A DNA stretch of 64,000 bases, taken from an uncultured Chthonomonadaceae bacterium. GTDB lineage: Bacteria > Armatimonadota > Chthonomonadetes > Chthonomonadales > Chthonomonadaceae. The notes beneath the pieces were generated by a model. The model had not been told where the DNA came from. It did not search any database and was given only the letters and a program-made list of their open reading frames with translations. Both the position numbers and the translations under genes were made by a program. The stretch is taken from contig CAWIEK010000001.1 in NCBI GenBank assembly GCA_963835065.1, positions 1-64,000 of the forward strand, given 5' to 3'. Below, piece after piece: positions 22,385 through 46,057 of the stretch; the stretch's first letter is position 1, and every line of letters starts with the position of its first letter.

Positions 22385-22486
22385 TGTCTGAACCATGATT
22401 TGCTGGCTTAACCGGATTACCAAGATGAACGCGCCTCCTCAATCCTGCGGATCACTAGAGTGCTGTGAAAATCATGGTTCAAGGCA
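22385..22486. repeat. Intergenic inverted-repeat element; a related end occurs at ~45250-45285
   Basis: tgtctgaaccatgattt ... aaatcatggttcaaggca; aaatcatggttcagaca at 45268. Confidence 0.65.
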
Positions 22487-43565: not shown

Positions 43566-43829
43566 CTCGCCTGCTTCCTGTGCGCGCCTATCTTTCTAAC
43601 AATCCAGGAGGCGCAGAAGTTCGATTGGGTGTTGTAACCTTCAAAATAGCGAATTCAATAACTGAGCATAATACCTGCTGTTCGCGCAGGACGCGCCGTT
43701 TTCCTTCTATACCGCAAACATATCAGGCTGACAAACGTTTTGAAGTGTAGCAATGTGTTGTCTGACGCTACAGCCAAAACACGTTTTACGAAACATCACC
43801 TTCTCTCGAAACGCGCGAACAAGCAAAAG

Positions 43830-44340
43830 ATGCCGGATATTTTCACTGTAGACAACTTTATTACCCTCTATGAAGGCGACAACCGCCGAATACGGTTTGC
43901 CTGGAACGGCAAACATGCTGACGATTTTGAAGACGCCAACGCAACATTCCGCGCTGCCATTCTTGCGCGTCTGTTGACAAATCCTGAACTTGCACCCCTG
44001 TCGCTTATTCGGGACGTGTTTGTTGCGGAAACGGCCTGGGCCGGGGAGTCGTGGCGCGTAAATAAACACCTGCACAATCTGGCTAATTTGCTGTTGACAA
44101 GGGGGCGCGGGGCTGTTCTGGATGATTTTCTTTTAGGCCGCGCCACCAGTTTTGATACGTACTGTGCCTGTACAAGAATTAACATCGAATCCAGGCTGCA
44201 GTGGAATTGCGGAACGAGATTGAACAACGCCTGAACGTGGAAACAGATCCGCAAATCCGCGCAATTTTTCAGGATGGTTACAAACTGTTTACAGACTATC
44301 TTGCCCGTCAAAAACCTTGACATCGCCCTTCAATCGCAAA
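43830..44340 (+). CDS. Hypothetical protein (probable frameshift near 44190; end approximate)
   Basis: ORF with RIRFAWNGKHADDFEDAN...SFDTY; function unknown. Confidence 0.5.
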
Positions 44341-44453: not shown

Positions 44454-45218
44454 ATGGCAGAGGCAGAACAGGCGATTAACACCGAACAATCAAGCGCGGA
44501 AGAGCGGGCATTGGAGCAGCGCCTGACGGAACTGCAAATCAATCCACAGCAGGCCAACGAATTGCAGATGCTGGATACGGCGCAAGAAGAAGCCACAGGT
44601 GAAAACGCGGCAGAGGGAGAAAGCGGGCGCGGGCATCACCATGACACGCGCAGCCTGCTGCACATTGATACCATTTACATGGAACCGCAGGTCGAGGAGT
44701 ATGCGCGGGGCCGGGAAATTCTGGCAAAGTTCCCCCACGCCAGGCGCATTGAAATCGCGTCCCACTGGAAAATACCCGAACTGCACGGCAACGCCGAACT
44801 GGTGCAGGATTGGGTCAGGGTGAAACGCGGCGTACTGGTGCTGGGCGTGAAGAAGTCGCTGTCGGCTATGCCCTATGAGCGCAGTTGTGATTTTGTCGCG
44901 CCGTCTCATGCCAATGGCTGTTCAATGGCCTGCGCGTACTGCGTCGCGCCGGGAACGCTGATTTCAACGCCGCAAGGCCAAGTACCCGTTGAACAAATTC
45001 GGGAGGGCAGCGCCGTACTTGCTTTTGATAGTTCTGCGGGACGGCTGGTAACGGGGTTTGTTTCGGGAACGGCTTGCAGGGAAGTGGAGGAAGCGCTTGA
45101 AATCGAGGTGGACGGCACAACGCTGCGCGTGACGGCAGAGCATCCTATCTGGACGCGCCGGGGGTGGGTAAAAGCCGGCGAACTGACAGAAGACGATGAA
45201 GTTCTCTGTTTTTCATGA
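44454..45218 (+). CDS. Spore photoproduct lyase-like radical SAM N-terminal fragment fused to an intein N-terminal half
   Basis: SHWKIPELHG...KRGVLVLGVKK...APSHANGCSMACAY, then CVAPGTLISTPQG..VEQIREG...LRVTAEHPIW..GWVKAGEL..D.V and a stop. Confidence 0.88.
   Translation: MAEAEQAINTEQSSAEERALEQRLTELQINPQQANELQMLDTAQEEATGENAAEGESGRGHHHDTRSLLHIDTIYMEPQVEEYARGREILAKFPHARRIEIASHWKIPELHGNAELVQDWVRVKRGVLVLGVKKSLSAMPYERSCDFVAPSHANGCSMACAYCVAPGTLISTPQGQVPVEQIREGSAVLAFDSSAGRLVTGFVSGTACREVEEALEIEVDGTTLRVTAEHPIWTRRGWVKAGELTEDDEVLCFS
44940..45218 (+). mobile_element. Intein N-terminal splicing region (blocks A and B, 92 aa); no C-terminal HN block
   Basis: Cys1 at 44940; block B TAEH; ORF ends after EDDEVLCFS. 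Confidence 0.88.
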
Positions 45219-45325
45219 TTCCATGATTGAGGAGATACGTCCCTCATGGTAATCATCGTAATCACATAAATCATGGTTCAGACAAAGGAGGGTCAGGCTT
45301 ATACTGCCGCTTCATGCGAGGATGA

Positions 45326-46057
45326 TTACTTGGATGGCTTGGGGTGAAAACTCGCGTCGGGCGTGTTGCCGTCGGCGTCCTTGCCTAATTCGGTCAGGCG
45401 ATTGGTGACGCCGACCACCATTTCGGCAAGGGCGCGGCTCATTTCCCCGCCTGACAACAGCTTGTCGTCGGCGGCCAGCAGGGGCGATTTGGGCAACACC
45501 ATATTCTTGTCAACAAGGTACGTCAGCGCGGCATACGCAGGGTGCGTTTTAGGCAGCGTGATTTTGGGCTTGGGCGGGAACACTTCAGACTTCGCTAAAT
45601 CTTTGGCGTCCGGGGTGGGGCGGGACAGCCCGGCGGACACGTAATCGCCCATGCTTGCCAGCACCTTCGCCAGTTCGTAGCGCGTCACGCGCTGCGTTCG
45701 CCAATCCCCATGCTCCAGCGGCTTCAACACCGTGTCGGCAACGGGACGCGACGGCTGCGCCTTCCACGTTCCCGCTTCCAGCATCTGCGCCAGTTTCGCA
45801 AGCGCGATTACAGCCTGCCCATGCGTCACCTTTGCCTCGCCATGAAACTCTTTCCCGTCCGGCAACGCCATCACGCCGTTGTCCAAGACTTCCTGTACAG
45901 ACGGCGCGGCCCAGTGGTCGGGGCGAACGTCAGGAGGTAATGATGAGTGATGAATGATGAGTAATGAATGATGAACACTCAGGCTATGACAAGGCGAAAT
46001 AAGGCAGAACAATGCCAGCAGCAGGTAAATTTTCAAAGCAGGGTTTGTACTCATCAT
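45326..46057 (-). CDS. S-layer homology (SLH)-like exported protein
   Basis: Signal peptide; PDVRPDHWA, FHGEAKVT, RVTRYELA, THPAYAAL. Confidence 0.75.
   Translation of the reverse strand: MMSTNPALKIYLLLALFCLISPCHSLSVHHSLLIIHHSSLPPDVRPDHWAAPSVQEVLDNGVMALPDGKEFHGEAKVTHGQAVIALAKLAQMLEAGTWKAQPSRPVADTVLKPLEHGDWRTQRVTRYELAKVLASMGDYVSAGLSRPTPDAKDLAKSEVFPPKPKITLPKTHPAYAALTYLVDKNMVLPKSPLLAADDKLLSGGEMSRALAEMVVGVTNRLTELGKDADGNTPDASFHPKPSK

Follow-up and report, generated by a model that had tools for sequence, protein, structure and literature searches.

Results

An SPL-like gene that ends inside an intein

The window, that is, the whole stretch of 64,000 nucleotides analysed here, was predicted from its letters to carry an SPL-like radical SAM gene broken within the CxxxCxxC motif by the N-half of an intein. 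The ORF summarized in Table 1 bears this out. The motif GCSMACAY (residues 155-162) is directly followed by intein block A (CVAPGT, with the intein Cys1 as residue 163) and further on by block B (TAEH), and the frame closes with EVLCFS and a stop after 92 intein residues, having neither block F/G nor a C-extein. The downstream gene is indeed convergent; it encodes an SLH-domain protein and lies far from the SPL-like gene in same-genus genomes. Pfam placed the SPL family at residues 72-174 (E 1e-11) and HINT-type families at residues 163-251, NCBIfam aligned the N-half with model positions 1-96 of the 346 of TIGR03886 (137.6 bits), and the PDB sequence matches of the intein N-half (IntN) were 2lwy and the NrdJ-1 intein 8ubs. 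Although PT-HINT was the top Pfam label, a polymorphic-toxin HINT or bacterial intein-like domain was rejected, since the domain sits inside a conserved enzyme motif; the existence of intein-less alleles (see below) also contradicts it. One end of a repeat element of the family found at 22385 had also been read just downstream, and it is there: the family is palindromic, about 100 bp long and has 69 BLAST matches in the genome, and the copy at the N-half, in contrast to the full-size copy in the window, has no left arm.

Table 1. Coordinates of the N-half locus (positions in the window) and of the C-half gene (positions in contigs C32 and C63 of the same assembly)
Feature	Position	Strand	Remarks
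ORF upstream of the N-half	43740-44234		164 aa
N-half gene	44454-45218	+	254 aa; acidic N-terminal extension, TIGR03886 N-extein, intein N-half, TGA stop
N-extein	44454-44939	+	162 aa; ends GCSMACAY; TIGR03886 positions 1-96 = residues 71-166
Cluster cysteine C156	44919-44921	+	in N-extein
Cluster cysteine C160	44931-44933	+	in N-extein
IntN	44940-45215	+	92 aa; Cys1 (nt 44940), block B TxxH, acidic end, net charge -8
Block B His (T227-x-x-H230)	45141-45143	+	H230
Stop codon	45216-45218	+	TGA
Antisense HNH fossil	44965-45213	-	C-terminal ~80 codons; TAG at 45145-45147; remainder of HNH gene gone
Palindromic repeat, right part	45207-45286		overlaps last two N-half codons (FS) and stop
Palindromic repeat, full-size copy	22385-22481		
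SLH-domain gene	45326-46057	-	convergent neighbour, outside the element
C-half gene, first copy	C32:33467-34348		
C-half gene, second copy	C63:17709-18590		

A C-half gene elsewhere in the assembly

The assembly under study (G000) is a 71-contig bin of 8.0 Mb, 91.9% complete and with 3.7% contamination. The original prediction took the third Fe-S cysteine to be the +1 residue of a missing C-extein, to be sought as an ORF in which a short IntC ending in HN precedes CY. When all contigs of the assembly were scanned for the motif in six frames, this gene was located on contigs C32 and C63. Its product reads M-LTYKKITKIKR...THN and then CYVSRRKG, that is, a 39-aa IntC ending in HN (H38, N39; the cysteine is C40), followed by CYV and 254 aa of enzyme. 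IntC exceeds the TIGR01443 cut-off (31.5 bits against 15.6), and positions 83-346 of TIGR03886 are covered by the C-extein with 424.3 bits. Joined, the exteins would read C156-x3-C160-x2-C, with the +1 residue of the C-half as third cysteine. The break falls in the linker between blocks B and F, and in the contiguous (cis) 132-aa inteins of G001 and P0006 the IntN and IntC stretches abut exactly, with no core residues lost. The net charges of IntN and IntC are opposite (-8 and +4), yet cis forms span -2 to +8 in the same stretch and the fractured forms described below +2 to +6, and an adaptive charge gain in IntC after dispersal (+4 versus +1 in G001) was accordingly discarded.

The C-half lies within 27 kb that C32 (15841-43190) and C63 (1-27210) share at 97.5-98.7% identity, which looks like two strain haplotypes of one locus; its two copies differ by two synonymous changes and one non-synonymous change. 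A distance of at least 53 kb separates the halves when measured to the nearest contig ends; with C32 and C63 taken as a single locus it would be about 78 kb. This separation is known at contig level in one bin and, because that bin holds the 27-kb strain duplication as well as frame shifts such as those of an nrdJ-like gene, placing both halves on a single chromosome is an assumption.

Tblastn and family searches of G000 found no intact copy and no further piece of the SPL-like gene. HMMs of IntN and IntC disclosed no other partner for either half, matching, besides these genes, only contiguous inteins. Other inteins of the assembly lie in genes that we take, from their motifs, to encode an nrdJ-like ribonucleotide reductase (C49:531839-537476; two inteins, several frames), a GTP cyclohydrolase I-like protein (C49:176548-177819), an AAA ATPase (C3:187340-190726) and a DnaB-like helicase (C53:323971-327129), the last three being contiguous inteins; the frame breaks of the nrdJ-like gene are probably assembly indel errors.

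Identity of the host enzyme

Neither half reaches the TIGR03886 cut-off (437.55 bits) alone; together they span the whole model, and full-length relatives score 560.8 bits (P0006, cis) and 560.2 bits (G024, intein-less). Homology to the SPL radical SAM core was detected at E 3e-10. The spore photoproduct lyase model TIGR04070 (cut-off 400) gave 27.6 and 75.5 bits for the halves and 104.2 for P0006, and in a sequence alignment with Geobacillus SPL a Thr occupies the position of the H-donor Cys140. In the available sections of PMC3467042, Cys140 is the established H donor of the Geobacillus enzyme, and a substitute cysteine is described for Clostridium SPL. Of the predicted SPL-like host, the relationship to SPL is upheld (TIGR03886), whereas a true spore photoproduct lyase is not; DNA-lesion repair as its role is only suggested, by likeness to SPL. 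NF038136 was matched over the cluster motif and IntN together (E 3e-8), with a score of 33 against a cut-off of 700.

Recurrence in independent assemblies

In a protein collection, all three members of the N-half cluster have 254 aa and end in VLCFS, and three of the four members of the C-half cluster have 293 aa and start with MLTYKK, the fourth being the 543-aa cis form P0006. Among the independent records, P0003 and P0004 have the identical stop and P0007 the identical C-half start; P0003 sits on a 254-kb contig and P0007 on a 436-kb one. Both loci were also compared with four sequencing runs (X1-X4) from three studies, whose contigs lose rare variants and for which our statements hold among the matches listed. 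Reads across position 45218 had been named as a check, and contigs of X1, X2 and X3 do read through the stop: a 96-bp contig of X1, which may be the source sample, spans stop and repeat with zero differences, and those of X2 and X3 match as far as 45221, just past the stop, beyond which they run on in different DNA (486 and 2527 bases, respectively). The 2527 bases of X3 gave no C-half match among the matches listed. At the C-half locus, X3 and X4 both have contigs that span the start, with pilM-side DNA upstream as in G000. Since equal stops and equal starts recur in independent assemblies, the separation of the halves is not a misassembly; the alternative of a one-off truncation or misassembly is contradicted by the stop of P0003 and P0004, the start of P0007 and the contigs from other studies.

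The 164-aa ORF upstream of the N-half had no match in family scans. Around it, the X3 contig skips 43712-44335 and the X4 contig has a replacement.

Fractured relatives with an antisense HNH gene

We examined 14 metagenome loci and several genome loci; five of the 14 (L035-L039) and L045 are unrelated HINT domains and were excluded from all counts, L035-L039 being presumably contiguous inteins of a UvrD/PcrA-like helicase (a label from motifs) that end in HN followed by Ser. Eight distinct loci have an SPL-like host and show both halves (L021, L026-L029, L031, L032 and L042), and in all of them an antisense HNH frame lies between the halves. In these, the halves are 557-609 bases apart and the antisense frame, of about 275 codons, is uninterrupted in seven; in L031 it is frameshifted near its start. 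From the final HNH histidines on, the last ~80 HNH codons are the reverse strand of IntN, and this overlap accounts for the fixed end of IntN. The same tail was found in 17 of 19 HNH homologues, the other two being short (156 and 172 aa). The HNH product narrowly passes Pfam HNH_2 (21.8 bits, cut-off 21), and the nearest folds of its predicted model (mean pLDDT 62, tail mostly <50) are HNH nucleases, with no PDB match at E<=0.001. Over the 28 pairs among the eight loci, which are not independent of each other, synonymous codon identity at shared residues was 0.67 in IntN, 0.39 in IntC and 0.40-0.41 in the exteins; judged from its codons, the IntN/HNH overlap is under selection. The C-half Met is at, or at most two codons from, the start position in the fractured relatives.

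Several loci showed features of their own. At L030:660-1850 the HNH tail is cut off by a 395-codon transposase-like ORF. L034:279-698 has the HNH frame, with the C-half outside view; its host is a distant SPL-like protein (TIGR03886 E 0.001), in which the element comes after a motif of CxxxCxxxxC type. In L021 (10940-10943), L029 and L042, the C-half and the antisense HNH gene appear to use one palindromic CATG for their start codons, so that the two genes would begin back to back. At L033:3147-4755 a related intein splits an AmmeMemoRadiSam enzyme (TIGR04337) just before the third cluster cysteine; its halves are adjacent (about 120-140 bases), leaving no space for an HNH gene, and a ligase-like ORF is nearby.

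Re-fused and intein-less alleles

G001, of the same genus, carries a contiguous 132-aa mini-intein at the equal site, and intein-less alleles occur in G002 (same genus) and in G013 and G024 (same family). A cis-intein query yielded 49 matches among shorter proteins, 47 of them N-halves and two C-halves. One conserved end pattern is shared by 45 of the 47 N-halves, nearly all at 96 aa, and source names include Leptolyngbya, Nodosilinea, Oculatellaceae and Abditibacteriota. Among longer proteins, four of nine matches were further cis forms in the SPL-like host family. In the phylum sample the host family was matched in 24 of 401 genomes (16 with single intein-less frames over the cut-off), and five genomes carry this intein. 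Plasmid and phage collections returned only distant inteins of <60% identity (5 and 68 records, respectively). The distribution of the element across phyla is patchy, and an intein-less allele exists inside the clade. The cis allele of G212 (L044) is without roughly 60 N-extein residues between two similar short motifs and is probably degenerate.

An antisense fossil and the inferred history

When G000, G001 and G002 were searched with an HNH query, the only matches were to the reverse strand of IntN in G000 (47% identity, E 2.6e-13, one TAG inside) and in G001 (63%); a free HNH gene elsewhere in any of the three was thus discarded. Compared with 3000 synonymous recodings, the antisense score had a z of 7.1 in the window, 12.2 and 7.7 in the cis inteins of G001 and G212, and 10-14 in three intact loci. 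These high values indicate that the window IntN and the cis inteins of G001 and G212 descend from an HNH-overlapped form; the fossil was examined in these two cis forms, the other five being protein records only. The seven cis forms were not one clade (p-AU 7.6e-5) in a 60-row IntN tree, which was built on 90 columns, has many weak forks and was midpoint-rooted only to draw it; repeated re-fusion of split inteins fits the data. Comparison with relatives had been proposed to decide whether the gene is truly split, and it turned up both fractured split forms and contiguous cis inteins (G001, P0006). Since the fossil test and the tree make the cis forms appear derived from a split, nuclease-containing ancestor, they do not speak against the split.

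An N-extein tree of 23 chosen rows contained a branch (96/92) uniting P0008 (a 96-aa-type split form known from protein alone), two cis forms, G002 and three dispersed N-halves. Given that the C-half Met is at, or within two codons of, the start position of the fractured relatives, direct descent of the dispersed halves from the fractured state would be the simpler history. The ancestor would have been a fractured gene consisting of an N-half, an antisense HNH endonuclease over most of IntN and a C-half, and it was likely a homing element. Later, in the G000 lineage, the HNH gene would have been lost and the N-half would have gained a new stop from the repeat; the halves would have moved apart, the C-half keeping its ancestral ATG. 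Truncation by the repeat had been raised as an alternative to a split intein: the repeat does overlap the stop codon and probably supplied it, but it probably did not cause the original split. The loss of the HNH gene may be fairly recent, because the fossil is still well preserved. Neither half is at the locus common to G001 and G002, and gene order is too shuffled to tell which one moved.

Selection and expression signals

Relative to G001, dN/dS was 0.138 for the N-extein, 0.122 for IntN and 0.155 for the C-extein (dS of IntC was saturated), values that mix time before and after the halves parted; both halves look to be under purifying selection. Splicing and cluster residues are unchanged among the N-halves P0001, P0003 and P0004 and among the C-halves P0002, P0005 and P0007. 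The N-halves are 93-95% identical (n=3), and no record of the dispersed lineage has a broken frame or an incomplete motif in either half. P0004 differs from P0001 at 12 residues, eight in the first 50 and four after residue 50, and an X3 contig of equal length to that of P0004 has 34 nucleotide differences. Under neutrality, the probability of 12 or fewer amino-acid changes is 0.0001-0.09 depending on the number of coding differences, a test that is weak at its pessimistic end and takes P0004, from the equal length, to be the product of the 3514-bp X3 contig. In the window lineage, synonymous identity of IntN has drifted to 0.50, versus 0.67 in the dual-coding loci, and protein identity to relatives is 0.67. 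A scan for promoter-like sites called none on the coding strand upstream of either half, the terminator scan of both halves gave nothing useful, and the C-half start has a weak Shine-Dalgarno-like context. No RNA run was among the sequencing runs listed for the gene, a result that has no bearing on expression.

Discussion

We believe that an unlinked natural split intein, which would supply the third Fe-S cysteine by trans-splicing, is the probable explanation for these results. In class 1 inteins, splicing proceeds by an N-S shift at Cys1, attack by Cys+1 and cyclisation of the terminal Asn. Here, the acidic IntN and the basic IntC would attract each other, the two gene products would associate through them and trans-splice, the N-S shift at Cys1 would create a thioester that Cys+1 takes over by its attack, and cyclisation of Asn39 would follow. 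The released product would be a 416-aa enzyme with a complete CxxxCxxC, in which Cys+1 would be a splicing nucleophile first and an iron ligand afterwards; since that residue is needed for both, splicing would have to precede cluster loading. With more reserve, we also lean towards the wider reading that this is a working unlinked split intein in a dispensable Fe-S enzyme, that it came from a two-strand HNH mobile element and that one genus-level clade holds all stages, the empty, fractured, re-fused and dispersed states coexisting. If this is true, the fossil tail would date each outcome, and splitting would be reversible until the halves separate.

It is unlikely, though the most serious of the alternatives, that the two genes are a recently dead pair, left when a repeat-mediated rearrangement broke the fractured locus, with one half silent and both drifting. 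The stop derives from a truncated repeat, the C-half has no called promoter, gene order in the genus is heavily shuffled and relatives show decay (for example, the HNH gene of L030 broken by an insertion and the partly missing N-extein of G212). The family is also patchy and, the SPL-like gene being dispensable in the phylum (24/401 genomes), decay would be tolerated. On the other hand, both frames are open and motif-complete in all records of the lineage (three N-halves and three C-halves), the amino-acid changes are concentrated in the variable first 50 residues and their deficit is significant under most assumptions, and the IntN protein identity stays at 0.67 while its synonymous sites have drifted.

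Split enzymes can complement without splicing, and the halves might thus associate through the intein and function as two non-covalently bound chains, either unligated or with just one junction cleaved. We regard this as quite improbable, since Cys1, the block B Thr and His, the penultimate His, the terminal Asn and Cys+1 are all retained, and since a break two residues past the second cluster cysteine would leave an unspliced intein inside the CxxxCxxC loop. Rejoining at the DNA or RNA level (excision, inversion or recombination) into a P0006-like cis intein, for which the cis alleles of close relatives could be invoked, is very improbable: the longest word common to the 3' region of the N-half and the 5' region of the C-half is 7-8 nt, with no recombination sites above 8 nt, no half-to-half joint appeared among the matches listed in the four runs (contigs that drop rare variants), and the stop of the N-half and the start of the C-half are placed as in the fractured relatives. 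Strain duplication and indel errors in the bin would equally suit an assembly or binning artefact, with halves truly adjacent, fused or from different strains, and we give this just as little credence, because short-read contigs of other studies (X3, X4) reproduce the stop and the flanks and because P0003 and P0007 sit on long contigs.

The proposed unlinked split intein was compared with known systems. In open full-text literature, and among the matches listed, we found neither a split intein in a radical SAM protein nor an antisense HNH gene overlapping an intein half. With regard to the host, the SplB inteins and the Rv2578c family (NF038136) resemble the G000 element in having a radical SAM protein related to SPL as host. 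NF038136 models a single uninterrupted protein (574 positions), whereas the G000 element is split and scores far under the cut-off of that model. The available part of PMC4760082 tabulates 48 actinobacterial SplB/COG1533 inteins, and the only inteins it names as split are those of PolIII-alpha. Spore photoproduct lyase SplB itself (TIGR04070; Geobacillus, PDB 4FHC-4FHG; PMC3467042, in its available sections) shares the radical SAM core, the CxxxCxxC motif (once joined) and a Tyr after the third Cys with the G000 enzyme, which differs by its low TIGR04070 scores and by the Thr at the Cys140 position.

Fractured genes, as described in the available sections of PMC2677866, have all three coding regions on one strand, with GIY-YIG or Vsr-like nucleases whose genes overlap the downstream IntC start by 6-69 bp, and their hosts are probably phage DNA and nucleotide enzymes; the same sections predict that HNH nucleases could fracture genes too. 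Like these, the G000 lineage has a host gene divided by an intein that is itself split in the usual linker, and its relatives have an endonuclease gene between the halves. Unlike them, G000 has no free-standing endonuclease between adjacent halves, only the antisense fossil inside IntN, and in its relatives the HNH gene is on the opposite strand and shares ~80 codons with IntN. Moreover, the host is here a radical SAM enzyme, and re-fused mini-inteins without nuclease are seen. An antisense nuclease over a catalytic intein half is thus a design unlike that of the published fractured genes, and with a break inside a metal-binding motif, assembly of the cluster would hinge on the independent expression of two genes. 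With 47 N-halves from a single query, the family may also provide new short split inteins of the Cys+1 type, for which cis counterparts exist in nature.

PMC2677866 proposed a stepwise route by which a contiguous intein could turn into two unlinked genes without passing through a dead intermediate. In this model (Dassa et al. 2009), endonuclease loss (step III) is followed by uncoupling (step IV), and the G000 state would correspond to step IV. As far as the available text goes, published end states have no same-lineage ancestors, whereas that of G000 has close relatives in earlier and alternative states; with these, and with a fossil that ties it to a nuclease-containing ancestor, the stepwise route becomes directly testable. 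The unlinked cases known at that time were cyanobacterial DnaE and the Nanoarchaeum equitans polymerase (PMC2677866, same sections). As in G000, their halves are in separate loci of a cellular genome, with an acidic IntN of ~90-100 aa and a short basic IntC that starts from its own Met. However, the DnaE type has a replicative polymerase as host, as opposed to a patchy TIGR03886 protein (24/401 genomes), and the accessible portions of PMC2677866 and PMC4760082 call its break single, irreversible and without known intermediates. In the SPL-like clade, by contrast, intein-less, fractured-type, re-fused and dispersed alleles coexist.
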